Positions 1 through 14,146 of a stretch of 64,000 nucleotides of DNA are shown here, in pieces (the first letter of the stretch is position 1; each line of letters begins with the position of its first letter). The translations under genes were made by a program, and so were the position numbers. The notes under the pieces are model-generated. The model did not search any database. It was given only the letters and a program-made list of their open reading frames with translations, and was not told where the DNA came from. Source of the DNA: Gemmatimonadota bacterium (GTDB taxonomy: Bacteria > Gemmatimonadota > Gemmatimonadetes > Palauibacterales > Palauibacteraceae). The stretch spans positions 576,001 through 640,000 of the forward strand of contig OZ220691.1 in NCBI GenBank assembly GCA_965116475.1. Reading direction: 5' to 3'.

Positions 1-432
1 CCGTCTCAGGTCTCTTTGGCCCATCTTCGATATCCTGCCAAGCCTCGGCTTGCCGCCGGTGGTGTGCTGCCGCGGCAGGTCACCGCGATGGCGTTGCAGG
101 CCTTCGCACCGCCCATGAAGAGCTTCCGGCGCTGCCGAGCGCCACGACCTCACGGCCCCATTAGTGGGCGCCGGCGCACGCCTCCATCGCCACCGTACAC
201 GGCGGCTGTGAGCCGAGCAAGCCCAGCAGCTTCCCCCGGCCCAACTTCCTGCGGAACGCAACCGATCCGTCGGCCCTCGCCCCGTGCACCTGAAAGCTGC
301 GCTTTGCCAGATCGATCCCGATGATCGTAACCTCTTCCACGTGGATGCCTCCTCCCTCGGATGGTCGACTGAATCGCTTCAGCACCATCTTGGCACATCG
401 CGATGCCGTCGGGAGAGGGCGTCCACTCCATC
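1..432 (-). mobile_element. IS110-family transposase remnant (nonsense codon plus large internal deletion), runs off the window
   Basis: GTG at 340 with GGAGG RBS gives VEEVTIIGIDLAKRSFQVHG...VAMEACAGAH*WGRE (TAA at 161-163). Within ~100 nt the C-terminal motif PRQHTTGGKPRLGRISKMGQRDLRR appears (positions ~1-75), so the middle of the gene is missing. Left end placed tentatively near 432, where composition shifts. Confidence 0.88.
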
Positions 433-572: not shown

Positions 573-1085
573 ATGACCATCACGCAAGATTCATATATTG
601 AAGTCCGTAAACGTCTCGTTGAACTCGGATGTGCTTCGCCGCGCAGCGTTGCAATTCTACCGATGAACTTTGACAAGGTCTCGTCCGTTGATGAGTTCCG
701 TTTCCCGTTTACAATGCTCACAACGACGAAGCTGCTACAAGCTGTCGGTTTATCAATCGACGATATCATGCCGCATGATTCATCACGACGTTATACGAAG
801 AATCGTGCTGACGATTGGATTCTGCCTACTCTATTCCTTACTTATTACTGGCTAGCTCAGCAACCGGCCGGCCTCGAGATAATCATAACAGCAATATTAG
901 AATACGCCGAACGGTTCTATGGTGCGATGCCGACACCACGAGTCTCGATGTCAATTGTAAGGGAACATCCAGATGGCGTGTGCGAGAAGATATCGTATGA
1001 TGGACCCGTGAAGGGGCTCCGGGATCTCACGCAAGTGGTCCAATCAACATCCTTCCTAGGACGAGGAGATGATCTCGATGGATAG
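573..1085 (+). CDS. Hypothetical protein (170 aa), first gene of an AT-richer two-gene module
   Basis: Clean ORF with GGAG RBS upstream; overlaps the next gene; central hydrophobic segment. Confidence 0.75.
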   Translation: MTITQDSYIEVRKRLVELGCASPRSVAILPMNFDKVSSVDEFRFPFTMLTTTKLLQAVGLSIDDIMPHDSSRRYTKNRADDWILPTLFLTYYWLAQQPAGLEIIITAILEYAERFYGAMPTPRVSMSIVREHPDGVCEKISYDGPVKGLRDLTQVVQSTSFLGRGDDLDG

Positions 1086-1716
1086 GAGTTTCATAGAAAA
1101 AATGAACGAATCAGTTCGCGAATTTGAACGATTCTTGTATATAACGCGATGCTCGAATCTTCAACATAACGCGATAAGCGCAATCGCGCAAACAAACGAT
1201 GAGATTGCAAGAGAAAAAGAACATGCAGTAGATCAACACGATGAAGAATATGCCAACATTCTACTTGGATTTCATTGTGTAATGGGCGCACTGGCCGCCG
1301 AATTATCGATGTATTTGGCGCTCAAGGAACAGAAGCCCGATGCAGCTTGGGATCACCTTGTGGAGGCTCAGGGGGCGCTAGCCGCGGCAGGCCGAGCCTC
1401 GTCAGGTTTCCGACACTTGAGAGTTCGCTATGACAGGCTAATTGCGATCGAAAAGATTGTATTCCCACCGCAAGTGTTCTTGAGTGCTGGCATGACTGTA
1501 GTGCAGGCAGAATGTTCAATCTGCAATAATGACTACACTGATTGCAATCACGTTACTGGATTCCCATATATGGGTAAGTTCTGCAATACGGTAATCACAG
1601 AGGTTGACCTTGATCACGTGGCGATCGTTGAAGAACCAGCGGACAAGAGGTGCCGCGTTACGACGCACAGCTCCGACGACGAGGGACGGAACTGGATGAC
1701 GCTTCGAATGGAATAG
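1078..1716 (+). CDS. Hypothetical protein with helical N-terminus and C-terminal CxxC-x6-CxH-x9-C motif resembling phage prohead-protease C-terminal region
   Basis: GAGGAG RBS at 1063-1068, ATG at 1078; motif FLSAG...ECSICNNDYTDCNHVTGFPYMGKFC...DHVAIVEEPA. Confidence 0.75.
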   Translation: MDRSFIEKMNESVREFERFLYITRCSNLQHNAISAIAQTNDEIAREKEHAVDQHDEEYANILLGFHCVMGALAAELSMYLALKEQKPDAAWDHLVEAQGALAAAGRASSGFRHLRVRYDRLIAIEKIVFPPQVFLSAGMTVVQAECSICNNDYTDCNHVTGFPYMGKFCNTVITEVDLDHVAIVEEPADKRCRVTTHSSDDEGRNWMTLRME

Positions 1717-1841: not shown

Positions 1842-3062
1842 ATGCCGCAACTGGCGTTTTTTCCATGGATCAACCTTGAGCGCGATATCGAGGTCGGCGC
1901 GTACTCGCTGACACCGTCGGTGCGGGGAGCCCGGCCGGGGTCGGATGTCGAGCGGTAATTCACGCTCGATTCCGTCCTTGCTCCATACCGTAACCGTCGG
2001 GACGAGCCGGTCCAGACTGCAGTGATCCTAGCGGCGCGTGACCGACGGCTGACGGACGATCTGTCCGGGAGGGATAGGGCTGATCTGTTTCTGTTTGCCG
2101 AGTTGTTCGCCTTCGCCGCCTTGTCAGCGCGTGAATTCTTTACTTGGGACTACTTCAACCGCGACCAACTACGGCTTGTGATCGAAGCGTTCAAGGAGCC
2201 GGGCGGCGGCGTGGTTGTGGAGACGCGCCGACGCGATGGACGCGTATCGTCGTGGATCGCCGGCGAGGACTATAAGGTCCAGATGCCGGCGCACGTAAGC
2301 TTGGAAGGCCAGGCAATCCAGCCCGACCGCGCCTTGCTCGACGCGCTGCTGGCGTTGCGAGAGCGAGAGCCGGAGGCGTGGACGGGACTGCACCGCGGTA
2401 TTGTCCTCTTCAACCAAGCCAATACCGACGCACTGGATATGTCACTGGAGATCGAACTGGTGCTTACGTACGCGGCGATGGAGCAAGTACTCGGAATCAG
2501 GTCGCGGAGGGACCAAAGGCGGTTCGCTACTAAGTTCGCCGAAGCGTGGTGGCCGAGCCGGGAGGTACCTCGGTGCGAATGGCGACCCCAGCCGAGGGGC
2601 AGGCCCTGGCCGAAAGGCAGCCTCCGGGCCTGCTGGGCTTCGGACCTGCAGGACTGTCGCGGGAACCTCGCGCACGGGCACAGGGAGGACCTAAAGCCGT
2701 CGCGGTGGACGGTTCGGCAACACCTGTTGCTGACCTCCTTCGCCATCCCCCGGCTCGTCAAGCAAATCCTGTCTCAACTGGACCTCTACGACCCGACGGA
2801 CGAGGACCACCGCGACATCAACGCCCTTGAACCTCTCCTAAACCTGCCGGACGTGTTCGCGCCGCCCGATTTCGACGACGACGAGCATGGCTTCTTGGGC
2901 GAAGATTATGCGTGGCTGCGGGTGCTGCGATGCGAGGGGGATCGCCGGGTCCGTCAATGGATCGAGCGGAGGGCGGAAGAGTTGCTTCTTCGACACGAAG
3001 ATGGTGACGATTCCCCGGCTGACGACCCACTGTTGAACGAGTCTGAGATACCCGAGCCGTGA
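1842..3062 (+). pseudogene. HEPN-domain (ApeA-like) protein interrupted by an in-frame TAA
   Basis: ATG 1842 (MPQLAFFPWINLE) is in frame with the 2022-3062 ORF apart from TAA at 1956-1958; RGNLAHG = Rx4H HEPN motif, preceded by a YAAMEQVLG helix. Confidence 0.7.
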
Positions 3063-3144
3063 ACAGCGCGAGGCACGCCCTTCGTCGAGACGGTGCGCGT
3101 GAGCTGGAGCGACGTCAGAGGCGTGTGGACCCCGAGCGGCATCG

Positions 3145-3332
3145 ATACACGTCCTGAGCGGCTCCGAAACCGTTCGGCGCGCGGCCGCATGGAGGTGCGA
3201 AGGCCATATCGGATCATCGACGCACCGATCCCGGGAGCCGGAAAAAGTCAACCGGAAAGGAGGTGAAGACCGCAGCCCGAAGCGGCTGACCTCGGCCGAG
3301 GCCGGGTGTCAGGTGAATACCGCACCTGTACA
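3145..3332 (+). mobile_element. IS481-family relic: transposase C-terminus and right end
   Basis: Decayed RGRME.RRPY and KSTGKEVKTAA remnants; ends TGTCAGGTGAATACCGCACCTGTACA; similar to 9574-9655 and to the reverse complement of 4346-4440. Confidence 0.7.
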
Positions 3333-3465
3333 CTCTACACTCGGGGCCACCCGCAGCAGTGACCTTAGCGAGGGTACATATCATTATCATACCGACACAC
3401 CGAGTCCAATCTCCACCCAAGCATCCTCCAACTCACTGCCTCCATTGTCAGTGTAGTGGCACGAC

Positions 3466-4302
3466 TCATGCACCCTCGCTTCGATCTCTTCCCATCCGAC
3501 TCAGTATACCTCTTACAGTTATATCCATCTGTGAATCTTTCTTATAGTCCGCAGGAGCTACGAAGTCGACCCGTCGGTCGGCAATCAGATGATGGATTTT
3601 GTTGAGATCTTTATCACTACGCTCGGGATCGTATACTGCGATCGCCCAACCACCTTGTTGCGTCGTCATCTTCATCGCCGGAATGTCCGTCTCACCATCG
3701 CCTATAAAAATCATTCGCTTGAACGGAATGGGGCGTTCGCGGTCAGACATATAGCGGTTGATTTCTTTGTTGTCATAATGGTTTTCTATTCCCTTGTTGA
3801 TGCGGAACAGATATTGTGTTTTAGTCGTATAATTGATGGCTACGCCGGGCCATCGCACATGTGCTCCATCGTAGATGAACTTGGAAGCAAATATATATCT
3901 GAATTCATCGTGGATAGGACAACCTCTAATCATCTCATCAATACCTGACGATATGATATAGTGATCGACAAGCAGGCCACAGTTTCTACCATGTTCGTTT
4001 ATTCGCCTAAACCAACTTCCATCAACCAGACCCGGAAAGAGTTCAGCTTTGGCGCCGTGCTGTCGCAACATCTCTTCCGTAACGTCGACCTTTTGTTCTT
4101 TTGCTTTCGCGATCATCTCGCACATATATATGAGAATCTCGTCAACATTTGCTTGCTTTGCGATGGCTTTGACTCCATCCCAGAAAGGACCATTCTCCAT
4201 CTGTAGCACTTCGGGAATAAAGGTCTGTTCTTGTAGATTCCCTCTGGCGAGTGTACCGTCAAAATCATAGATAAGCGCAGCTCGTTGATAGGTTCCAATC
4301 AT
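3466..4302 (-). CDS. HAD-superfamily hydrolase
   Basis: Motif I YDFDGT, motif II IISSG, motif IV FIGDGETD; AAAGGGGA RBS before ATG 4302; AT-richer than flanks. Confidence 0.9.
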   Translation of the reverse strand: MIGTYQRAALIYDFDGTLARGNLQEQTFIPEVLQMENGPFWDGVKAIAKQANVDEILIYMCEMIAKAKEQKVDVTEEMLRQHGAKAELFPGLVDGSWFRRINEHGRNCGLLVDHYIISSGIDEMIRGCPIHDEFRYIFASKFIYDGAHVRWPGVAINYTTKTQYLFRINKGIENHYDNKEINRYMSDRERPIPFKRMIFIGDGETDIPAMKMTTQQGGWAIAVYDPERSDKDLNKIHHLIADRRVDFVAPADYKKDSQMDITVRGILSRMGRDRSEGA

Positions 4303-4345
4303 TGTGAGTCCCCTTTCTGTGTGTGGCAGTTTTTCTCGAAGAAGA

Positions 4346-4900
4346 CGTACAAGTTCGGCAATCACCTGACGCCCGGTTTAGCCGACGTCAGAGTCGCGGA
4401 CTGCTGTCTTCATTTCGCCCTTGGTTGATTTCTCCCCAACCCTTCGGTTCCGGATCCCATCCTTGAGACCCTGATGCCATGTTGGCCGCGCCATGCTGGG
4501 ACCGCAGTGCAGACGGGATCCGTACAGTGGCAGTCCACTTGCGCCGCGTCGGTGGCCGCTTCCGGGGAATCCCGTACATGTCGACGTAGCTGTGTTTGCT
4601 CGGCCGATTCATCGGAACGGATTCATCAAGGGTGTGCAGGATGATGTGGTCGGCGGTCTCCTCGGGCCGACTCCAGAGTTGCGACGAACATCCCAGGTTG
4701 ATGCCCAGATCCTGTAGGATGCGGCTGGGCTGGTCGTCCTCGCCACCCTCCCGGCGCAGCGACGTGTACGGCTCGATGTAGCACAGCTCCTTCATTGGCC
4801 GATTCGCATCGATTGCCGTGCGGGGGAACAGGCACTGGGGGAAGCGGTTGCGTCCGCGGCAAGCTCCGGTTGCCGTTCCGGTTGAGCGCCGGGCAATCGA
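4346..4900 (-). mobile_element. Heavily decayed IS481-family relic
   Basis: Minus strand ends ...CCGGGCGTCAGGTGATTGCCGAACTTGTAC, matching the 3233-3332 end, preceded by KDGIRNRRVGEKSTKGEMKTA; upstream fragments PHGNRCESANEGAVL and HSYVDMYG loosely recall IS481 transposase segments. Left limit uncertain. Confidence 0.55.
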
Positions 4901-4946
4901 GGTTGGAGTTGGGTTCGAAGGATAGGATCAGCCGCGAGCGGTTCTT

Positions 4947-6527
4947 TCAGTCGCCCGGCCACTTCTGGGACCGACTCGAAACGGCGTCCACGGCTGCCGC
5001 GAGAGCATCGATGCCGCCCGGTGATGTCAGATCCTGAAGGGCCGTCAGCCCAATCGACTTCTGCGCGGGGAGATCGCGCTCGGCAACGACATAGAACTCC
5101 CAGCTCCCGGCGTCCCGTTGGTCGGCCGTGTCCCCGTCGGCTCCGTGCCACGCGAACACGTAGAGGTGCGCGTGGCGTCCGGGCTTCGCGACCCAGTCTC
5201 CTTCCTTGTCCCAATACCCCGTCCGGGGGGCGATATCGTATCGAGCGGGGCTCTGTCGCTCGGGGCTCTTCCAGGCCTGGGCTGCCGCGGACTGCTTGAC
5301 CTCGAGCCTGATTCCCGACTTGTGCTCGAAGTCCCACGAGTCCCATGGCGTCGTGCGCGCCCAGCCGCTGGCCTTGAGCGTGAGCGCCACGATCGCCTCG
5401 ACGTACTCGGAACGGTGGACGTTGTTCATCACCGGCTCCTTGTACGGCCGGATGACGTCCTCAAGCACGATGGCGTCCGACTGCCACGGCTCCGCCAGCT
5501 CGTCCAGGATCCCGACGATGCGCTCGAGCGCGGCCGCATACCGGTCGGGTCCCTTGCCTCCCTCCGGGATGACCGGAACCCACAACTGCTCGCCGACCTC
5601 GTGGAGTCTCGACCCCATGCGAGCCTCGAGTATTGCCTTGACACCGGGGTTCCAGCCCTGGCCGTCGGCGAAGACCCAATCCACACACACCATCCAGAGT
5701 GGCGTCGAGGCGAACTCCTGATACAGACGTGAGTTGATCCCCAACCAAACACCGAGCTTGTAGCGGCGATCGATGCGCGCGTATCGGCCGTAGCCGTAGC
5801 CACGCGGCGCTACCTGGTAGCTGCCACGACCCGACATGGTCCTGGTCGCCAGCCAGCCGGCCGCCTTCCCGATCTCGGTAACCGTATCGACCATCTCCTT
5901 TCCCGGGAGCGTAGCCTTGCTCTCCTTTGCCTCGGCGAACCGCACGAGTCCTCGGAGTTGCCGGAGGTCCGCCCGACCGAACTCGTCACCCTCCAGCGGT
6001 TCCTTCATGCTGTCCAACAAGGTGGTCCAGTCGATGATGCAGAGGTGCTTCTCCGTCCCATCGATCCGGACGCAGCGCGGATGCTCGAGACCGGTATACG
6101 GGAGTCCCTTCCTTTCGAGCCGGCCGAGCAGCCGCGGCCAGAGCTCCTCCACTCGCCGGGTTGGAACCAGGAACATGAGCACCGAGACACCGGCCGACGG
6201 CAACTGCTCCAGGTAGGAAACGGGCTGAGCCCGCATGAGCGGCGCATCGAACTTGGCCTCGATGAGGAACCGCTGCTCCCCGTTGTCTCCCTTCTGCAGC
6301 ACGTCCGGGCGCCCCAACTCCGGATCGGGAGTCTCCGTCTCGAAGTCCATGCCGGACAACCGCATGCCCGGGACGATTCGCGCCAGCAGCTCGTTCAACC
6401 CCTCTCGCGAGCCGGGATGGCTGTTGAGGATGTACTCGAGCACGGAGCAGGCGAGCACCTCCATCGGTGGATGAAACCGCCAGCTCAGGTGAGTCAGCAG
6501 CGGCTTTGACGTCTCAGTATCACTCAC
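4947..6527 (-). CDS. Fusion protein with two PD-(D/E)XK nuclease-like domains
   Basis: N-terminal GRPDVL...FLIEAKFDA; C-terminal NNVHRSEYVE...WDFE...RLEVKQS...YVFAWH...WEFYVV. Confidence 0.8.
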   Translation of the reverse strand: MSDTETSKPLLTHLSWRFHPPMEVLACSVLEYILNSHPGSREGLNELLARIVPGMRLSGMDFETETPDPELGRPDVLQKGDNGEQRFLIEAKFDAPLMRAQPVSYLEQLPSAGVSVLMFLVPTRRVEELWPRLLGRLERKGLPYTGLEHPRCVRIDGTEKHLCIIDWTTLLDSMKEPLEGDEFGRADLRQLRGLVRFAEAKESKATLPGKEMVDTVTEIGKAAGWLATRTMSGRGSYQVAPRGYGYGRYARIDRRYKLGVWLGINSRLYQEFASTPLWMVCVDWVFADGQGWNPGVKAILEARMGSRLHEVGEQLWVPVIPEGGKGPDRYAAALERIVGILDELAEPWQSDAIVLEDVIRPYKEPVMNNVHRSEYVEAIVALTLKASGWARTTPWDSWDFEHKSGIRLEVKQSAAAQAWKSPERQSPARYDIAPRTGYWDKEGDWVAKPGRHAHLYVFAWHGADGDTADQRDAGSWEFYVVAERDLPAQKSIGLTALQDLTSPGGIDALAAAVDAVSSRSQKWPGD

Positions 6528-6719
6528 GAATCAGTTCCTCCACCTGACGACATCGGACCGCGTCGGACGAGCGGCACCAGAGTCGGGCCAGATGCGTTCG
6601 CCCGTCAAGGCTCCGACTCTCCCGAGTCCCGGTATCGATTGACCAACAACCATTTGTGGAACATCGTAGGGACTACGGTGAAGTTCTTTTCTCCCCGTTG
6701 GCGAGCACGAGGGGGTGAC

Positions 6720-6941
6720 ATGCGGAAGTGGTTCGGCGACATGATGGCCGACGACGAAGGACGGCCCTCATCCATGCGGGTCACGATGCTGATCGGCATG
6801 GTCGGCGGGATGGGGGTATTGGTCGGGACCGCGTTCGGCGTCGGGGACTGTTCGACAGACTACAGTACGACGCTCACGTTCTTGTTCGGAGGAATCCTCG
6901 GCGCGAAGGCGTGGCAGAAGCACTCCGAGACCAAGAGCTAG
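6720..6941 (+). CDS. Small two-TM membrane protein, holin-like
   Basis: GAGGGGG RBS, 73 aa, SSMRV before TM1, second hydrophobic helix, charged tail AKAWQKHSETKS. Confidence 0.65.
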   Translation: MRKWFGDMMADDEGRPSSMRVTMLIGMVGGMGVLVGTAFGVGDCSTDYSTTLTFLFGGILGAKAWQKHSETKS

Positions 6942-7024
6942 AGTTCGGCCTTCAGATCAGCATTTCCCCGAGGTCACCAGGTCGTACTTCGTCAATGGCT
7001 TCCCGCATATCGGCGTCTGAATCG

Positions 7025-7759
7025 ATGGTCACGCTTGGAGTCGACCTCGCCTCGCAGCCGAAGCGGACGGCCACCTGCCTGATTCGGTGGGATCGCGGGT
7101 CGGCGCGCGTGGAGACCCTCTCGCTGGGCGCGACGGACGCCGACCTGCATGAGTTGTTCAGGCGCGCGGACAGGATCGGCATCGACGCCCCCTTCGGCTG
7201 GCCCGCGCCGTTCACCCGAGCCGTCGCCGCCTATTCGACAGAGACGGTCTGGCCTTCCACCGCCGTTCCACAGCTTCGGTTTCGACGAACCGATGAGTTC
7301 GTGAGGGAGAGACTGGGTCGATGGCCGCTCAGCGTCTCGTCGGATCTGATCGCGGTGCCGGCGATGCGCGCCGTCCGCCTGCTCGCGGAGGCGTCGGCCG
7401 CCGGTGAAGCCATCGACCGGAGCGGCGGCGGCCGCTTCGTCGAGGTCTACCCCGCAGCCGCCCTCCACGTATGGGGCTTCCCCTCGCGCGGCTACAAGCG
7501 TGCCAAGGGGGCGACGGTTCGAGCCCGGCTCGTAAGCGATCTTGCCGAGCGAACCGTGGACTGGCTCACCCTCTCCGAGGAGGACCGGGCTCGGTGCACG
7601 GCTTCGGACGACATGCTCGATGCGCTCGTCGCGGCCCTGGTCGCCCGAGCGGCCACCACGGGCCGTTGCGAGCCGATTCCTCCCGAAGATCGCGAGCTGG
7701 CTCGGGAGGAGGGTTGGATCGCCCTACCGCAGTCCCGAAGTCTCAACCAACTCGCGTGA
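7025..7759 (+). CDS. DUF429 family protein (predicted RNase H-fold nuclease)
   Basis: LGVDLA, IGIDAPFGWP, RRTD, EVYPAAAL, DMLDALVAAL, EGWI motifs; alternative start at 6995. Confidence 0.85.
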   Translation: MVTLGVDLASQPKRTATCLIRWDRGSARVETLSLGATDADLHELFRRADRIGIDAPFGWPAPFTRAVAAYSTETVWPSTAVPQLRFRRTDEFVRERLGRWPLSVSSDLIAVPAMRAVRLLAEASAAGEAIDRSGGGRFVEVYPAAALHVWGFPSRGYKRAKGATVRARLVSDLAERTVDWLTLSEEDRARCTASDDMLDALVAALVARAATTGRCEPIPPEDRELAREEGWIALPQSRSLNQLA

Positions 7760-7804
7760 ATCGTGGCGATCTCGCGGATCGACGACGTCCCCCGCGCCTC
7801 AGCA

Positions 7805-9364
7805 TTAGCCCCGTTCGTCAGCCTTCGCTTGCCCCCACTTGCGTTCGACTTCATCAATGACGGGGATCGCATTGACCGCTAGGTCCATGATGCTATCGAC
7901 GTAGTAGTCCGTGATGGGCCCATGGCCATCCTTCCATTCTCGGTACAAGTCCGCGAGGAGGGAATCCCATCTGGTCATTTCGTCGCGAGCTTGGCGGACA
8001 TAGGGCCACCAGAGCAGGGTTCCACCGGGATCGAGGTCACGCCGAAGCCTGTCCTCCAATGCTCCACGCCGCTCTCTATCCGCAGCGGTCATGTTGTTCT
8101 TGTCTAGCGGATGCAGCACACCCCACCTCCATTGATTCGGTCCCGGCCCAACCGATTGCAGTACAACACCCGTGCACCCCTCAAGTGGAGGATGGTCCTT
8201 CTTCTTCCTTTCCCACGGAGGCCACCCCACGCGGTACAGCCAGAGGAAGTTCGACCATTTTGCTTCTCCGCCGTACCTGCACTCGACACGAAGGTCCGGA
8301 GCGAGATCGGGCAGTTGCTCCTGTACCCGCCGGTGGACCTCAGCGCGCAGGTGTTCCAGAAAGCCCCCGCACAGCTCCGCCTTCAGCTTCGGCCAGACAT
8401 CCGAGACGGTCTGCGCGGTTGAAAGCTGATTCGGGTTGGCGAAGAGGTAATCCTGGATTGCCCGCGTGTCGCTGTCCGTCGCCATCGAATGTCCTCCAAA
8501 TTGTTGTCGGCAGAATGCTTCGGCATCCCGCAGGAACCACCGGAGCCGGTCGGCGTGGCACTGGGTCCGACAGGCGGCGAACCAATCGGCCAGGGAGAAC
8601 CGAGTCCGGAAATCGGCGAACACATCGTCCGCGAGAGCTTGCTCATCGCTGGGCGCGTCGTCCGCCTCGCCCCCAGCCGCCTCGGTGTACTCGGCGGCCC
8701 GATCGGCGCTCCCAGGGACCCCCCAATAGGGCATGACGGCGAGCCGCCCCCGCCAACGAGGGAGTTCCTCCTTCGGCAGGCTATGAGGCGTCGGTCCTTC
8801 CCCCCGCGGCGAAAGATAGATGAGCAGAAAACGCTCCTCGTACTTCCCCTTGAGGTACTTCAGGTAGTCCCGCACCTGGTGCCGCTGATCATCCGCGAAG
8901 GGCTTGTTCTCGATGGCCAGGCACCACGGCCCGGCGCCGGTCTCGACGTCCACCGTGATGTCGATGCGACGCCTCTTGGGGATCACGCGCTCCAACTGCA
9001 CACGTACCGGCTTCGAGAAGTCCGGCCTCGGCTTTGATGTGCCGCCTTCCGCGAACAACTGTTCCAGGAGGATCCCGAGCAGGGACGTGCCCTGGCCGTG
9101 TCGGGCCGCGGGGTTGAGCAGGTCGCCGATGATTCTCGAAAGCAGCACTTCGCTCGGGCGATCCTCGCCCATGTAGTCGAACACGTTGAAGCGATGCGCG
9201 AGATGCCGGTCAAGCTCCCGCTCCAGCTTCCGGGCCGCCTCCAGCACGGGATTCAGCTCGACGAAGAGCTGCTCAAGCCGGCGTCGGTCGGCTTGCCGTG
9301 CCTCATCCATCCGCGCCTCCAGCCCCGCGAAGAATGCAGGGATCCCCGCAGCGCGCTCCGTCAC
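7805..9364 (-). CDS. PD-(D/E)XK nuclease family protein
   Basis: FNVFDY..SEVLLSRIIGDLLNP...HGQG, RRIDI, IENKPFADDQ..Q..DY, IYLSP; GTG 9364 after AGGGAG. Confidence 0.85.
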   Translation of the reverse strand: MTERAAGIPAFFAGLEARMDEARQADRRRLEQLFVELNPVLEAARKLERELDRHLAHRFNVFDYMGEDRPSEVLLSRIIGDLLNPAARHGQGTSLLGILLEQLFAEGGTSKPRPDFSKPVRVQLERVIPKRRRIDITVDVETGAGPWCLAIENKPFADDQRHQVRDYLKYLKGKYEERFLLIYLSPRGEGPTPHSLPKEELPRWRGRLAVMPYWGVPGSADRAAEYTEAAGGEADDAPSDEQALADDVFADFRTRFSLADWFAACRTQCHADRLRWFLRDAEAFCRQQFGGHSMATDSDTRAIQDYLFANPNQLSTAQTVSDVWPKLKAELCGGFLEHLRAEVHRRVQEQLPDLAPDLRVECRYGGEAKWSNFLWLYRVGWPPWERKKKDHPPLEGCTGVVLQSVGPGPNQWRWGVLHPLDKNNMTAADRERRGALEDRLRRDLDPGGTLLWWPYVRQARDEMTRWDSLLADLYREWKDGHGPITDYYVDSIMDLAVNAIPVIDEVERKWGQAKADERG

Positions 9365-9453
9365 GCAACATCTCCCTGCGTCGTCTCGACCATGCTGGCG
9401 AACTTCACGCCTCCCTGCCCTCCGCCTCCCCCAGGAGGAAAGCTCGCAGTAGG

Positions 9454-9660
9454 TGTTCCCGTTCTTCGATGAGCACGGGGTGAAGGTCGAGACGGTCCTG
9501 AGCGACAACGGGCGCGAGTACTGCGGCCGCGAGGATCGGCACCCCTGCGAGCAGAAGGGGAGCCGGAAGCCGAGGAGCCGGAAGAAGTCAACGGGAAAGA
9601 GGCTGAAGACGGCGGCCTGAAGCGCTGATCTCGGCGAGGCCGGGTGTCAGGTGATTCACA
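9454..9660 (+). mobile_element. IS481-family relic (integrase-core fragment joined to right end)
   Basis: VFPFFDEHGVKVETVLSDNGREYCGREDRHP followed directly by the end sequence ...GAGGCCGGGTGTCAGGTGA shared with 3233-3317. Confidence 0.8.
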
Positions 9661-9727
9661 TGCGTTCCTTTCCGCCGTCAACCCGGAATCAACTGCGCGT
9701 TCGATCTGGCCGGCGGTCCTCGTTTCG

Positions 9728-10873
9728 CTACGGGTCCACCTGCCGATGGAATCTCTTCACGCCGTCCTCGATGGTCATGATGACGGCGCTCTTGGTCGGG
9801 TGGCGGGCGTCGTTGTAGTGGGAGATGCGCGTGGCTCCGGCGTATTGTCGGGTGGCCAGCATCTCCCGGCGGACGGCATCGGCGTCGAGACTGCCCGCCC
9901 GCGCCGCAGCCTCCAGAAACAACCGGACCGCATCATAGCTCACCGCGTCGCCGCCCGTCGGCATGATGCCGTACCGAGTCCGGTAGGTGTCGACGAACGC
10001 CCGCGCCGTCGGCTCGTCTGTGTCCGGTGAGAAGTGACCCGTGAAGAAGCTGCCATCCACGGCGGCGCTCCGGTTGTCGAGCAGCGCGGGGTTGTCCCAG
10101 GCATCGGCCCCGAGCAGCAAGACCGGTTCTCCGGCGGCGTCGAGCACCGGCAGAGCCCTTGCCTGCGCGCTCAGGAGGGCCACCTCCTCAGCCCGGCCCG
10201 GCACGAACACTGCGCGGGGAGTCACAGCCGCGATGCGCGCCAGTTGCGCGGAGAAATCCGTCGCGCCACGCTCGTACGAATCCTCGGCCACGATCGCGCC
10301 GCCGGAGCTGAGGAAATGATCGACGAAGAACTCCCCGATCCCCTCGCTGTATACGTCCCCCCGCTGGGTCAGAACGGCGGCGGTCGTCACTCCGAGCGCC
10401 CCCGCGGCGAACTCCGCCATGACGCGCCCCTGGAACTGGTCGGTGAACGCGGCCATGAAGACAAGGTCGCCAGCCGAGGTCACGCCCGGATTGGTGGCCG
10501 CCGTCGTGATCATCGGCACGCCGCGGCGCTGGGCGACGGCCCCCACCTCGATAGCGTGCGAAGAGCGGTTGGGGCCGATGACGGCGACGACCTGGTCACT
10601 GTCGATCAAGACCTCCGCGGCCTCGACCGCAGCCGCCGCTTCCTCGAGCCCCTCCCGGACGACGAGCTCGACGGTACGGCCCAACAGGCCCCCGCGGCCG
10701 TTGGTTTCGTCCACCGCGATCATCGCTCCGTTCGGATAGGTCCGGACACCCGAGACGAGGAAGCCGACTCTCACCGGGGCATCGTCGGCGTCCCCACCGG
10801 CTGTCGGCGACGTCCCATCGCCGCAGGCCGTCAGGAAGAGGGCCGCGACGCAGGCAGCATGAAGCAGTCTCAT
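9728..10873 (-). CDS. ABC transporter substrate-binding lipoprotein, LivJ/LivK-like
   Basis: Lipobox LTAC; NGRGGLLGR, VIGP..S, TDQFQG, TDFSAQL, YDAV motifs. No permease/ATPase genes adjacent. Confidence 0.9.
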   Translation of the reverse strand: MRLLHAACVAALFLTACGDGTSPTAGGDADDAPVRVGFLVSGVRTYPNGAMIAVDETNGRGGLLGRTVELVVREGLEEAAAAVEAAEVLIDSDQVVAVIGPNRSSHAIEVGAVAQRRGVPMITTAATNPGVTSAGDLVFMAAFTDQFQGRVMAEFAAGALGVTTAAVLTQRGDVYSEGIGEFFVDHFLSSGGAIVAEDSYERGATDFSAQLARIAAVTPRAVFVPGRAEEVALLSAQARALPVLDAAGEPVLLLGADAWDNPALLDNRSAAVDGSFFTGHFSPDTDEPTARAFVDTYRTRYGIMPTGGDAVSYDAVRLFLEAAARAGSLDADAVRREMLATRQYAGATRISHYNDARHPTKSAVIMTIEDGVKRFHRQVDP

Positions 10874-11128
10874 GGAGATAAACCTAATCGTTTTCTTGTG
10901 GACAATACATGTACTGCCGGCATGTTTTCGTGTCGATCTGATGTGTAGCGGTCGAGCGGGTCCCGGAGATCCGGTGTCCAGCTTCTGGCGGAGGTCGAGG
11001 GCTGCCGCACGCCCCTCCCCCGACAGGGGGTTGCCAACATCGCGGACGGGAAGAGTATGTCGCGTTCCCACGATCCGTCGCGGCCGTCGGAGGGGCCGCG
11101 GATCGAGCCGATACAGGAGGAGTAGAGC

Positions 11129-11686
11129 ATGAACAGGTACGTCGGACGAATCTTCCTGGGGGTGCTTGGCGTGGCGGTGGCCGGCGCCGTCCTTGCGCTG
11201 GGTGATGCCTGGACGGCGGTCGGCGTGGCCGAAGGGGTGAACCCGTTCCGCGCCGCACTCAGCCAGCTTGGGGTCTTGTACATCGTTGCGATGTTCGTCG
11301 AACGGTCGCTCGAGGTGCTCCTCAAGGCATGGCGGCAGGGCGGGAAGATCCGCCTCGAGGAAGAGGCGCGTTCAGCCGGAGAGGACGCAGCTGGAGAGGA
11401 CGGCAGGGCCGCAGCCGAGGCGAAGCTCCGGCAATACAGGCTGGGGACGCAGCGGCGGGCGCTTCTCTTCGGTTTGACGCTCGGCATCATGGTGTCGCTC
11501 GGTGGCGTGCGGCTGCTTGGCTCGATCTTCGAGTTCGGCACCGGAACCGCGCCCTTCCAGCGAGATCTGTTCCGGTTCACCGACGTCATCGTGACGGCCG
11601 GCCTGATCGCCGGGGGATCCGCTACCATCCACAAGCTGATGGCGTTCATCGAAGACCTGCTGAAGGCCAACCGAACCGCTCGATAA
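11129..11686 (+). CDS. Multi-pass membrane protein with holin-like C-terminal motif
   Basis: Strong AGGAGG RBS; about four hydrophobic segments; FVERSLEV and TAGLIAGGSATIHKL motifs. Confidence 0.8.
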   Translation: MNRYVGRIFLGVLGVAVAGAVLALGDAWTAVGVAEGVNPFRAALSQLGVLYIVAMFVERSLEVLLKAWRQGGKIRLEEEARSAGEDAAGEDGRAAAEAKLRQYRLGTQRRALLFGLTLGIMVSLGGVRLLGSIFEFGTGTAPFQRDLFRFTDVIVTAGLIAGGSATIHKLMAFIEDLLKANRTAR

Positions 11687-11697
11687 CGGCGACACGC

Positions 11698-13509
11698 ATG
11701 CATGATCCAAATGGCCCGCCCCCGGCGGCTGGCAACGGACGGGACGCCACCGGCGCCGCGGCGCACGGACCGGACTCGCTGGTCTTCAAGTCGGACCGGC
11801 CGTGGCCCAACGCCCGCCTGCGCGTGGGGGCGATCATCGGGCACGCCACATCGGATTCGGTGCGGTTGTGGCTGCGCACGGGGAGGCCGGGACGCTTCAC
11901 GCTGCTGCTCTACGATTGCGGCGAGGCGATGGGGTCGTCGTCGGTGCGGGCGGAACTGCGGGCCGCGCTCGGCCGGGTGCCGGTGTCGGCGGAGGAGACT
12001 GCCGACGCCCTGGCCGCGTTGCGCGCCGTGCCGTTCGAGGTGGCCGGCTACGCCGACGACACGACGCGCGTGCTGGACCTCGCGGATCTGCGGCCGGACA
12101 CGCGCTACGGCTACGCGCTGCACTCGGAGGACGACGGCGGCAAGGTGATCCTGGGACACAACCGCCTGCGCAGCTTTCGCACGCCTCCCGCCGAGGACGA
12201 GCGGCGCCCGTTCCATGTCGCGCTCTTCTCCTGTCACATGCCGTACCGCGTGAGCGGGCTGTTCCGGAAGCGGACGGATGTGGGCGACATCGATACGTGG
12301 GACTTCCTCGCCGCGACGCTCGCCCGGCACCGCGACAACGTCGACGTGGTGATCGCCGGCGGCGACCAGTGCTACAGCGACGGGGTGGCGACGCTGGACA
12401 TCTGGAAGCTGCTGAACCGCAGCATGCGCCGCGAGGGGGGCGAGTTGCTGCCCGACGAGCGCTCCATGCGCAGCTGGTACCGCGACATCTACCGGGGATA
12501 CTGGGGCTTCGAGGGCGTGCGCCGCGTCCTCGACGCCTACCCGACCTACATGATCTGGGACGACCACGAGATCGGCGACGGCTGGGGATCGCACTATCTC
12601 ACGGACGATCCCCCGTACGACGCCCCGTACGACAGCCTCGCACACATTCTTCCGGATCTCGAAGACCGGGGGCTGACCCGCGACGAGGGGCGGCGCCTGG
12701 TCCGCCGCATGTTCCGCGCGGCGTGCCACGTGTACCGGGAATACCAGCACAGCCACAATCCCCCGACGGAGGCCGTTGCGGAGGCCAGCGGGGATGCGCA
12801 CGACGTGTGGGACTACTCCTTCGCCAGGGGCGGGGCGGCGTTCTACGTCCTGGATGGCCGCGGCCACCGCGACATCGAGCGCGACGGCTTCCGGATCCTG
12901 GGCGAGGCCCAGTTTCGGCGCTTCGAGGCGTGGGCGGACGCGCTCGAGCCGGAGGAGACGCCGTTCATGTTCGTGGTCTCGGCGGTGCCCGTGCTCCACG
13001 CGAGGTCGGCCCTGGCGAACGCGGATCTCGAGTTCCCGCTCCGCGCGGCGGGCCTCGGCGACGATCTGCGCGATTCGTGGGAGCACAGCCTCCACGACGA
13101 GGAGCGGGCCGCCCTCATGGAGGTGCTGTTCCGGGCGGCGCGGCGCGGCGTGCGTCCCCTCGTCCTGAGCGGCGACGTGCACTGCTCGGCCGTCTTCAGC
13201 CTCAACGACGACGACGGGCACCGCGTCTGGCAACTCACCTCGAGCGCCGTGACCTACCACGTGCCGCGCGCGCTGGGCTGGGCGCTCCGCTTCGGCGCGG
13301 CCGACGACGGCGAGACCCCGGAGGGATACGGATTCAGGCGGCTCGCCCTCTACACGGGCACGTCCTACGCCCTCATCGAGGTCAATCCCGGCGCGGGAGA
13401 GGCCTGGTTCAAGCTGTACGGAAACCAGGTCGTCGAGGAACCGACCCCGGACCCGGGCCGGCGCGCCGTACCGCTAAGCCACTCGGTCGCCAAAATCAAA
13501 CTCTTCTGA
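11698..13509 (+). CDS. PhoD-like (alkaline phosphatase D family) metallophosphoesterase without signal peptide
   Basis: FSC, GDQCYSD, WDDHE, LDGR, DSW, LSGDVH motifs; N-terminal FN3/purple-acid-phosphatase-like region (LRPDTRYGY). Confidence 0.88.
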   Translation: MHDPNGPPPAAGNGRDATGAAAHGPDSLVFKSDRPWPNARLRVGAIIGHATSDSVRLWLRTGRPGRFTLLLYDCGEAMGSSSVRAELRAALGRVPVSAEETADALAALRAVPFEVAGYADDTTRVLDLADLRPDTRYGYALHSEDDGGKVILGHNRLRSFRTPPAEDERRPFHVALFSCHMPYRVSGLFRKRTDVGDIDTWDFLAATLARHRDNVDVVIAGGDQCYSDGVATLDIWKLLNRSMRREGGELLPDERSMRSWYRDIYRGYWGFEGVRRVLDAYPTYMIWDDHEIGDGWGSHYLTDDPPYDAPYDSLAHILPDLEDRGLTRDEGRRLVRRMFRAACHVYREYQHSHNPPTEAVAEASGDAHDVWDYSFARGGAAFYVLDGRGHRDIERDGFRILGEAQFRRFEAWADALEPEETPFMFVVSAVPVLHARSALANADLEFPLRAAGLGDDLRDSWEHSLHDEERAALMEVLFRAARRGVRPLVLSGDVHCSAVFSLNDDDGHRVWQLTSSAVTYHVPRALGWALRFGAADDGETPEGYGFRRLALYTGTSYALIEVNPGAGEAWFKLYGNQVVEEPTPDPGRRAVPLSHSVAKIKLF

Positions 13510-13546
13510 CGACGCCGGCCGGCGTGTCCGGCCCCCGCCCCTCGTA

Positions 13547-14146
13547 CTATCCGCCCAACTGGGCGTCGACGATTATCGCGGACAGCAGTGCGAGGCCTGC
13601 CCCCACCGCGAACCCGAGCGCGAGCCATGCCAGGTTGACCATCTGCTTGCCGGTCGTGTCGCCAATCGCCGCCAGCCGCGACATCAGGGCGGTCTCGGCC
13701 TGCGGATCTCCACCCTCCTCACCCTCCTCACCCTCTTCCACAGACTCCGAATCTGTGCTCATCCCGCTCGCCAGGGCCCGGCGAACGCTCCTGTTGACGC
13801 GTCCGCCCATCAGGAGGGCGAGCATGAAAAGCAGCAATGCGAACCAACCCACCGCGTCCGACACGACGATCACGGTCATGCCGGCGATCCCGACGAGGAC
13901 GCCCACCGCGAACACGAGTCGGAAACGCCCCGGGAGTCCGTCCGACGCCTCGCTTTGGGCGTCCAGGTAGCTCCTCACTTCCAGCTGGGAGATCTGGCTG
14001 GCGAGGGCGCCCATCAGGAGGCCGAAGAGAATGATCCAGAGCGCCGCGGCTCCGGCGGTCGCCATGGCCATTGTGAAGAATGTGGCAAGCCCGAGGCCGA
14101 AGACCGGCAGGACCAGCGACGGGATGCGCTTCGAACCTTCGGTCAT
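13547..14146 (-). CDS. Hypothetical membrane protein (about 5 TM)
   Basis: Multiple hydrophobic helices and an acidic loop; GAGGGGG RBS. Confidence 0.7.
   Translation of the reverse strand: MTEGSKRIPSLVLPVFGLGLATFFTMAMATAGAAALWIILFGLLMGALASQISQLEVRSYLDAQSEASDGLPGRFRLVFAVGVLVGIAGMTVIVVSDAVGWFALLLFMLALLMGGRVNRSVRRALASGMSTDSESVEEGEEGEEGGDPQAETALMSRLAAIGDTTGKQMVNLAWLALGFAVGAGLALLSAIIVDAQLGG

Follow-up and report, generated by a model that had tools for sequence, protein, structure and literature searches.

Organization of the locus

In the window, a 64,000-nucleotide stretch of a Gemmatimonadota genome, we found two overlapping open reading frames (ORFs) at 573-1085 and 1069-1716, both on the plus strand, in agreement with the initial annotation. 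The features of the pair and its immediate flanks are as follows:

161-340, minus strand: relic of an IS110 transposase (flank), about 70% identical to annotated IS110 transposases
573-1085, plus strand: gene 1, an ORF of 170 aa; an alpha/beta family matching nothing known, obligate upstream partner of gene 2 and candidate latent effector
816-920, plus strand: gene 1 residues 82-116, nearly uncharged and moderately hydrophobic, with no classical transmembrane (TM) helix
1069-1716, plus strand: gene 2, an ORF of 215 aa (212 aa from the likely start at 1078); a helical N-terminal domain and the C-terminal half of a phage prohead protease
1069-1410, plus strand: gene 2 conserved N-terminal domain, residues 1-114, helical by sequence pattern, standing in for the protease N-half
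1411-1662, plus strand: gene 2 residues 115-198, the C-terminal half of a zinc-knuckle prohead protease
1483-1485, plus strand: gene 2 Ser139, presumed nucleophile, corresponding to the S-x-G serine that is invariant in the phage proteases
1513-1551, plus strand: gene 2 knuckle C149-x2-C152-x6-C159-x-H161, a presumed zinc site common to the phage enzymes
1615-1617, plus strand: gene 2 His183, the third triad position (His or Glu)
1842-3062, plus strand: HEPN-like gene (flank) with an RGNLAH motif, interrupted by an in-frame stop at codon 39; lies outside the conserved module

Residues of gene 2 are numbered here from 1069. The ATG at 1078 is the likelier start, as it leaves an 8-nt overlap with gene 1, has GGAG upstream, and yields a protein of 212 aa, as in the 95% identical homologue P0003; a -8 junction is also the commonest in the family (38 of 63 loci). 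The pair had been described as AT-richer, and its GC content (0.48, against 0.69 for the genome) is lower than that of all 3164 tiles of equal size. It is present as a single copy in its genome. Two public sequencing runs, one of them possibly from the source sample, cover the stretch and show zero differences in the pair; no RNA run was listed as covering it. Read depth over positions 1-450 of the window indicates a multicopy sequence. Promoter and terminator scans at the locus performed no better than chance.

The IS110 relic proposed as one flank was found where expected. The other proposed flank, a HEPN gene, has a single RxxxxH motif (RGNLAH, at residue 273 counted from the ATG at 1842), and it is named here from that motif because the gene has no Pfam match and is interrupted by a single TAA at codon 39. 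No variant is listed at this codon in the two public runs covering it, and the TAA is therefore probably either a real nonsense change or bypassed by a downstream restart. No portal or capsid genes were found among the window ORFs scanned, as had been claimed.

Gene 2 carries the second half of a prohead protease

The motif first read in gene 2 is exact (S139-x-G141...C149-S-I-C152-x6-C159-x-H161-xx-G164-xx-Y167-x-G169-xx-C172...H183-VAIVEEPA), and the suggested origin of its C-terminal half in phage prohead proteases was upheld by profile comparison and by the position of its phage relatives. Residues 115-198, and that segment only, aligned with a profile of six phage proteases (hhalign, 98.5%, E = 3.9e-15), and comparisons with single phage proteins gave 96.8% and 96.5%. 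A tblastn search of 50,697 phage records returned four. One, from pleolipovirus Humcor2, contains a full-length homologue; the other matches were partial, to ORF123 of Bacillus phage 0305phi8-36 (annotated as protease/scaffold, two records) and to a Moorella phage gene. Both partial matches sit between portal and major head genes, as do matches in Acinetobacter phage ME3, Flavonifractor phage Cormatin, and a phage-like plasmid of B. thuringiensis. Homologues of gene 2 itself (116 among 363 candidates) are nearly all full length, with 38-59% identity and one at 95%.

In the S78/assemblin family, a histidine is the base and the serine of S-x-G is the nucleophile. In the six phage proteases, the first half has two invariant residues, K48 and H54, and the second half has S104, four Cys/His, G, Y, S, P, and A. 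Among 146 gene 2 sequences (185 dereplicated at 90%, with a mean identity of roughly 45%), S139, C149, C152, C159, and H161 are each conserved at 100%, and position 183 in the main family is His in 84% and Glu in 12%. The S-x-G serine was found in 11/11 cassette proteins and 8/8 phage-type proteases aligned and is kept in the archaeal members and in remote members with a SEC-C-like tail; the third triad residue is not retained in the enterobacterial SEC-C-tailed copy. At C172, one cassette member has Ala instead, as do several of the phage enzymes, and K193 is K or R in the cassette proteins but not in the phage proteases.

The N-terminus of gene 2, described initially as unrelated and helical, is indeed a conserved domain with a helical sequence pattern, in which R27, Q32, N63, K86, A93, and W94 are near-invariant. 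Its histidines (columns 111 and 116) reach only 80%, and column 111 is Ser in the protein from the window. The alignment of gene 2 with the phage enzymes begins at residue 80 of MTATph1 CDS0006, past H54, and a profile of the phage N-half found nothing in the gene 1 and gene 2 families (best E, 0.6-6.5). A circularly permuted N-half in the C-terminal strands of some homologues was considered and rejected (best E, 0.7-1). No longer fused forms of gene 2 were found among 7997 candidates of 460-2000 aa, a search that offers weak evidence.

Judged from sequence, gene 2 is half an enzyme with a putative catalytic serine under selection, because the second-half residues are conserved and the first half, with its presumed catalytic histidine, did not turn up in either gene. 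A serine that is invariant in 146 sequences is not what one would expect of a dead scaffold. The Cys/His residues had been proposed as targets for mutation; the knuckle, however, is common to the phage proteases and its putative ligands most likely form a zinc site, leaving Ser139 as the invariant residue of catalytic type.

We compared gene 2 with the zinc-knuckle prohead proteases (0305phi8-36 ORF123, MTATph1 CDS0006, ME3_20, and Cormatin WAK79859; an S78/XkdF/DUF2213-like group). Both have a C-terminal helix, an S-x-G strand, a CxxC-CxH knuckle, an (H/E)-x-S/A strand, and a PA motif. Unlike these proteases, gene 2 lacks the N-half bearing the invariant K..H motif and has a conserved helical domain instead; it also lacks a scaffold tail, has never been seen between portal and capsid genes, and has an obligate partner. 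Without the first half and the head-operon position, gene 2 falls outside the prohead proteases.

Database models were of little help in placing either protein. Pfam, NCBIfam, and PADLOC gave no credible match for the two window proteins (PADLOC 2.0, none at E 0.1), and PDB sequence searches with profiles of the two genes and of the phage proteases yielded no credible match. None of 86 gene 2 members matched Peptidase_S78, S78_2, or DUF2213 in Pfam at E 0.05, models that are weak for the phage relatives too (2/6 match, below the cutoff). PHROG 16951 (312 positions, no assigned function) matches residues 139-199 in 85/86 members, although only about 60/312 of its positions are covered. An Atlas lead pointed to PF04586 in 12% of one cluster, and a match to GntC (E 0.008), far below the cutoff, was rejected.

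Gene 1 is a conserved family lacking a classical transmembrane helix

The gene 1 family comprises 357 cluster representatives (50% clustering) at E ≤ 0.001, with no match in Pfam, PHROG, PADLOC, or NCBIfam. Conserved residues include P30, W82, P85, Y142, and G144. None looks catalytic, and the best His column reaches 22%. A hydrophobic helix had been read in gene 1. The hydrophobicity was found but is moderate, with a best 19-residue Kyte-Doolittle mean (KD19) of 1.06 that lies outside segment 82-116, and no classical TM helix was found, so the description of gene 1 as a membrane-associated partner gained no support. Across the family, the median KD19 is 1.31, with 11% of 172 members above 1.6, and columns 82-112 hold a median of one charged residue. 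Read from the alignment, residues 82-116 are followed by a beta-hairpin pattern and then an amphipathic helix.

By analogy with the cleaved effector EACC1, the variable loop at about residues 66-81 is a candidate cut site; no cleavage-site residue is conspicuously conserved before W82, and position 81 is E in 41% and D in 32%. In one protein (P0245), a RES domain (E 4e-14) precedes a complete gene 1 domain, which may be an effector fusion or a gene-calling read-through. Two other ideas for gene 1 were abandoned. As the missing half of the protease, it has no sequence likeness to the phage proteases or to their N-half, and a supposed likeness to TRADD-N was dropped, the literature passages available offering no support.

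The absence of catalytic-looking residues and of a TM helix in gene 1 would suit a dominant-negative decoy, in which the half-protease would bind to the scaffold, the capsid protein, or the protease of the phage and stop maturation, with no killing by gene 1, which would serve as a folding partner or adaptor. Half-domains are natural poisons of oligomeric enzymes, and the pair has prophage and provirus carriers, in which sparing the host is useful. A pure decoy, however, needs neither an invariant Ser139 nor a position 183 restricted to His or Glu, and we regard this explanation as unlikely.

The two genes are strictly paired

It had been suggested that homologues of the two genes might stay together, and they do. 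Gene 1 lies directly upstream in 68/68 loci with an intact gene 2 5′-end, a count that was drawn from loci L002-L084, leaves out the phage proteases (L080 and L085) and loci with <150 nt upstream, and includes some duplicates and two loci with a truncated gene 1. Gene 1 is absent from the four loci with a 5′-truncated gene 2. The gene 1 stop overlaps the gene 2 start in 62 of the 63 measurable loci. A reverse search with the gene 1 profile alone yielded eight new loci, of which seven have gene 2 next to gene 1, one of them frameshifted; at the eighth, gene 1 itself is broken, with a fragment remaining. The distance matrices of the two genes correlate (rho 0.85, 49 pairs, 0/999 permutations), a measure of coinheritance rather than of binding. 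The two genes are thus coinherited and translationally coupled.

This obligate, coupled 1:1 pairing also fits a self-contained heterodimeric protease, in which strands of gene 1 would complete the gene 2 barrel and a noncanonical base (e.g., K193, K86, or H161) would serve Ser139, acting on a phage or host target in defence or stress regulation. Several strands are predicted in gene 1, and K193 is the residue held as K/R by the cassette proteins and not by the phage enzymes. The idea fits poorly with K193 being Arg in some members, with the lack of a conserved His in gene 1 (its best column being the one at 22%), and with the lack of sequence likeness between gene 1 and the protease N-half, and we find it doubtful.

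A few loci have lost one partner. In E. coli AW1.7, an IS3 element interrupts gene 2 and gene 1 is intact; in L124, gene 2 is frameshifted next to a gene 1, possibly through an assembly error; and in L007 and L061, a truncated gene 1 stands beside an intact gene 2. These losses bear on whether the pair is a classical toxin-antitoxin (addiction) system with one protein neutralizing the other, as two small overlapping genes on plasmids and insertion sequence-linked units, often beside toxin-antitoxin genes, might suggest. One-sided losses in both directions, AW1.7 and L124 on one side and L007 and L061 on the other, argue against it, although they reflect the state of the genes and not their expression, and we consider such a system very improbable.

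The pair is rare, mobile, and found in bacteria and archaea

Record titles place the pair in Pseudomonadota, Bacteroidota, Planctomycetota, Acidobacteriota, Poribacteria, Fibrobacterota, and others, as well as in haloarchaea, and five loci were found on IMG/VR contigs. It was found in 0/300 other genomes of its own phylum and 0/15 of its own genus, and four other samples of 250-400 genomes contained it in two genomes each beyond the seed. The pair is rare and mobile, and its carriers include prophage contigs, plasmids, an ISLad2-linked enterobacterial unit, and Humcor2. Pleolipoviruses are not known to have an HK97-type head, and the pair in Humcor2, which lies antisense between rep and structural genes, is therefore cargo. 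Humcor2 is described as an induced provirus (PMC7911831), and the passages available from that paper do not discuss the pair.

A remote clade, in which gene 2 has the SEC-C-like tail, keeps both genes and belongs to the ISLad2-linked unit, which also contains an FRG gene and resides on enterobacterial plasmids and E. coli chromosomes. Four loci (L116, L118, L120, and L121) represent an identical five-gene unit, present in many such plasmids and chromosomes and consisting of an ISLad2 transposase, a hypothetical gene, FRG, gene 1, and gene 2, which looks like an ISNCY element with candidate defence passengers. An identical SEC-C-tailed version is present in 24 of 5426 complete E. coli genomes, near full length in 21, and 211 plasmid records match the tailed protein, most of them from conjugative plasmids of enterobacteria. 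A small Acinetobacter plasmid carries a SEC-C-tailed pair with RelB/YafQ and AbiEii genes.

Two further arrangements were seen. In a prophage hotspot (L023, 2456-6098), a trypsin-like gene and a ShosTA system come after the pair; in three near-identical loci of Bacteroidaceae type (L008, L028, and L039), two small genes and a caspase-domain gene lie downstream of gene 2.

Defence genes in the neighborhood

The proposal that the pair might be part of a defence system agrees with its own locus, a defence island where restriction genes lie upstream and PDC matches occur on both sides. Within 14 kb upstream are type I restriction subunits, DUF262-type proteins, and PDC-S15, and the window contains three candidate defence genes downstream:

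3466-4365, minus strand: HAD protein matching PADLOC PDC-S34 (E 3e-102)
6728-7759, plus strand: DUF429 protein with a PDC-S44 match
7805-9508, minus strand: PD-(D/E)XK protein with a PDC-S26 match

The upstream genes, on L105 at 3125-14080 (G000 C1, about 563-574 kb, upstream of the window), include HsdR, HsdS, a DUF262-type protein (PADLOC Orf5/HEC-06), and an FRG protein (PDC-S15) beside an NsnA-like protein, followed by an insertion sequence-like gene. Elsewhere in the window, a 526-aa protein at 4947-6527 (minus strand) shows nuclease-like motifs by eye and has no Pfam, PADLOC, or NCBIfam match, and a small membrane protein followed by a PhoD-like phosphatase was recognized by eye at 11129-13509 (plus strand). 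The downstream neighbors vary between related loci.

Enrichment near defence genes, also suggested at the outset, is modest across the family. The nearest three ORFs on each side matched PADLOC at E ≤ 1e-25 in 21/277 cases, against 3/75 distal ORFs of the same loci and 0/60 random ORFs of the pair's own genome (3/135 pooled; 135 of 150 sampled controls were scanned). The difference was significant against the pooled controls (Fisher p 0.041) and the own genome (p 0.033) but not against the distal genes (p 0.44). We take it as modest support only, because the ORFs were called by a crude longest-frame rule, the loci are not independent, and some matches were ClpB-, RecN-, or intron-RT-like. Frequent Pfam neighbors are integrases, transposases, toxin-antitoxin toxins, DUF4145, PIN, Mrr, TIR, HNH, caspase, and methylase genes, and many copies lie among ordinary or housekeeping genes (e.g., L004, L006, and L031). 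The pair occurs away from head operons, no portal or capsid family having been found in the 150 of 277 neighbors fully scanned (E 1e-8), in part of the rest, or in annotated loci.

This weak enrichment leaves room for a nondefensive accessory role, either as a zinc- or redox-responsive switch, for which the Cys-rich domain and the extra SEC-C-like tail of one clade would speak, or as a decayed phage relic riding mobile elements. The relic is ruled out by strong conservation in both bacteria and archaea, the coupled frames being intact, and sporadic spread on mobile elements is unlike core physiology. An accessory role of this kind seems rather improbable to us.

Comparison with known defence systems

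One close parallel is with EACC1 modules. As described in the passages available from Kaur 2020 (PMC7159879), EACC1 has a single TM helix with alpha+beta extensions and is encoded 5′ of a caspase gene; according to the available part of Evans 2025 (bioRxiv 10.1101/2025.11.14.688446), it is cleaved to give an N-part that inhibits and a C-part that disrupts membranes. On those descriptions, both modules consist of two genes, with a small nonenzymatic protein first and a strictly linked protease-type protein second, and both EACC1 and gene 1 place a hydrophobic segment between alpha+beta elements and show a C-terminal hairpin pattern. They differ in that gene 1 has about 165 aa, against a model of about 107 positions for EACC1, and lacks its Gly-rich TM helix. 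The EACC1 partner, as the same passages describe it, is a caspase fused to variable sensors, whereas gene 2 is one half of a phage-derived serine protease and keeps a constant architecture.

The EACC1 domain PF19953 was found in 0/121 gene 1 members at E 0.1, and the single conserved TM helix with a small-residue patch that typifies EACC1 is missing from gene 1, given its median KD19. The Atlas score of gene 1 for EACC1 (0.79) is within the chance range, and a search for EACC1 sequences returned none from sets of 1, 5, and 251 genomes or from the controls. Lacking both the PF19953 domain and the TM helix, the pair is not an EACC1 system, and the relation of gene 1 to EACC1 is one of analogy, not membership.

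Phage prohead proteases are proven immune triggers that activate CBASS CD-NTases, according to the available text of Hobbs and Kranzusch 2026 (PMC12991175). Going by that text, the pair would share with CBASS a defence keyed to the prohead protease late in infection, but in CBASS the phage enzyme acts on a host protein that has a cleavable loop and produces a nucleotide signal, whereas in this pair part of the protease itself is host-encoded and there is no linked CD-NTase. The lactococcal anti-phage protein Rugutis (PMC11381338), compared by its description in the accessible part of the paper, shares a SEC-C motif with one gene 2 clade; it is a single 359-aa gene with an N-terminal SEC-C, and gene 2 in the window has no SEC-C tail.

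A full-text literature search that included protein accessions found no description of the pair; supplementary tables of defence screens could list these families, one such screen, from the part available, being bioRxiv 10.1101/2025.01.08.631966. The pair is real, conserved, and undescribed in the literature searched.

A possible protease-gated mechanism

We consider an anti-phage function of some kind, inferred from the evidence above, to be reasonably probable, and the pair probably works like a protease-gated defence module. The full chain, in which a mobile two-gene unit combines a protease with a latent effector, is speculative in its mechanism, and we put it forward tentatively, as possible but short of an even chance. 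On its own, gene 2 would be inactive, its helical domain keeping it together with gene 1. Once infection by a tailed virus reaches its late stage, the prohead protease of the phage, or another head-assembly protein, would pair with the half-barrel and supply the missing strands and base; alternatively, that phage protein may be lured to the gene 1/gene 2 complex. Cleavage or release of gene 1 would follow, in the loop ahead of W82-P85, and the C-terminal part of gene 1, with the helix and beta-hairpin, would oligomerize and damage the membrane as EACC1 does, aborting infection.

In favor of this protease-gated chain we counted the half-protease anatomy, the invariance of Ser139, the strict coupled pairing, the patchy mobile spread, and the defence island at the pair's own locus, together with the EACC1-like gene order and segment layout and the role of prohead proteases as immune triggers, the last two as far as the available passages of the cited papers describe them. 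Against it we counted the absence of PF19953, the greater length and lower hydrophobicity of gene 1, the lack of a conspicuously conserved cut site, the weak defence enrichment, and the many copies among ordinary genes, together with the mechanical demands of complementing a folded phage protease in trans, for which we know of no precedent. A more specific version is a split-enzyme immune sensor, in which a host half-protease is completed in trans by an invading phage head-assembly protein and activates a new family of death effectors. Such a sensor would serve bacteria and haloarchaea alike, and also a pleolipovirus, itself free of the HK97 fold, in competition with tailed viruses. We hold this version to be rather unlikely.

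A natural split point in the prohead-protease fold would be useful for protein engineering. If the pair is defensive, bacteria and archaea would share a system assembled from part of a phage enzyme; its effector family would be new, and its sensing logic might be new as well, that of completing a split viral enzyme rather than binding it or being cut by it. In that case, the copies in E. coli and on conjugative plasmids may shape the phage susceptibility of common strains.
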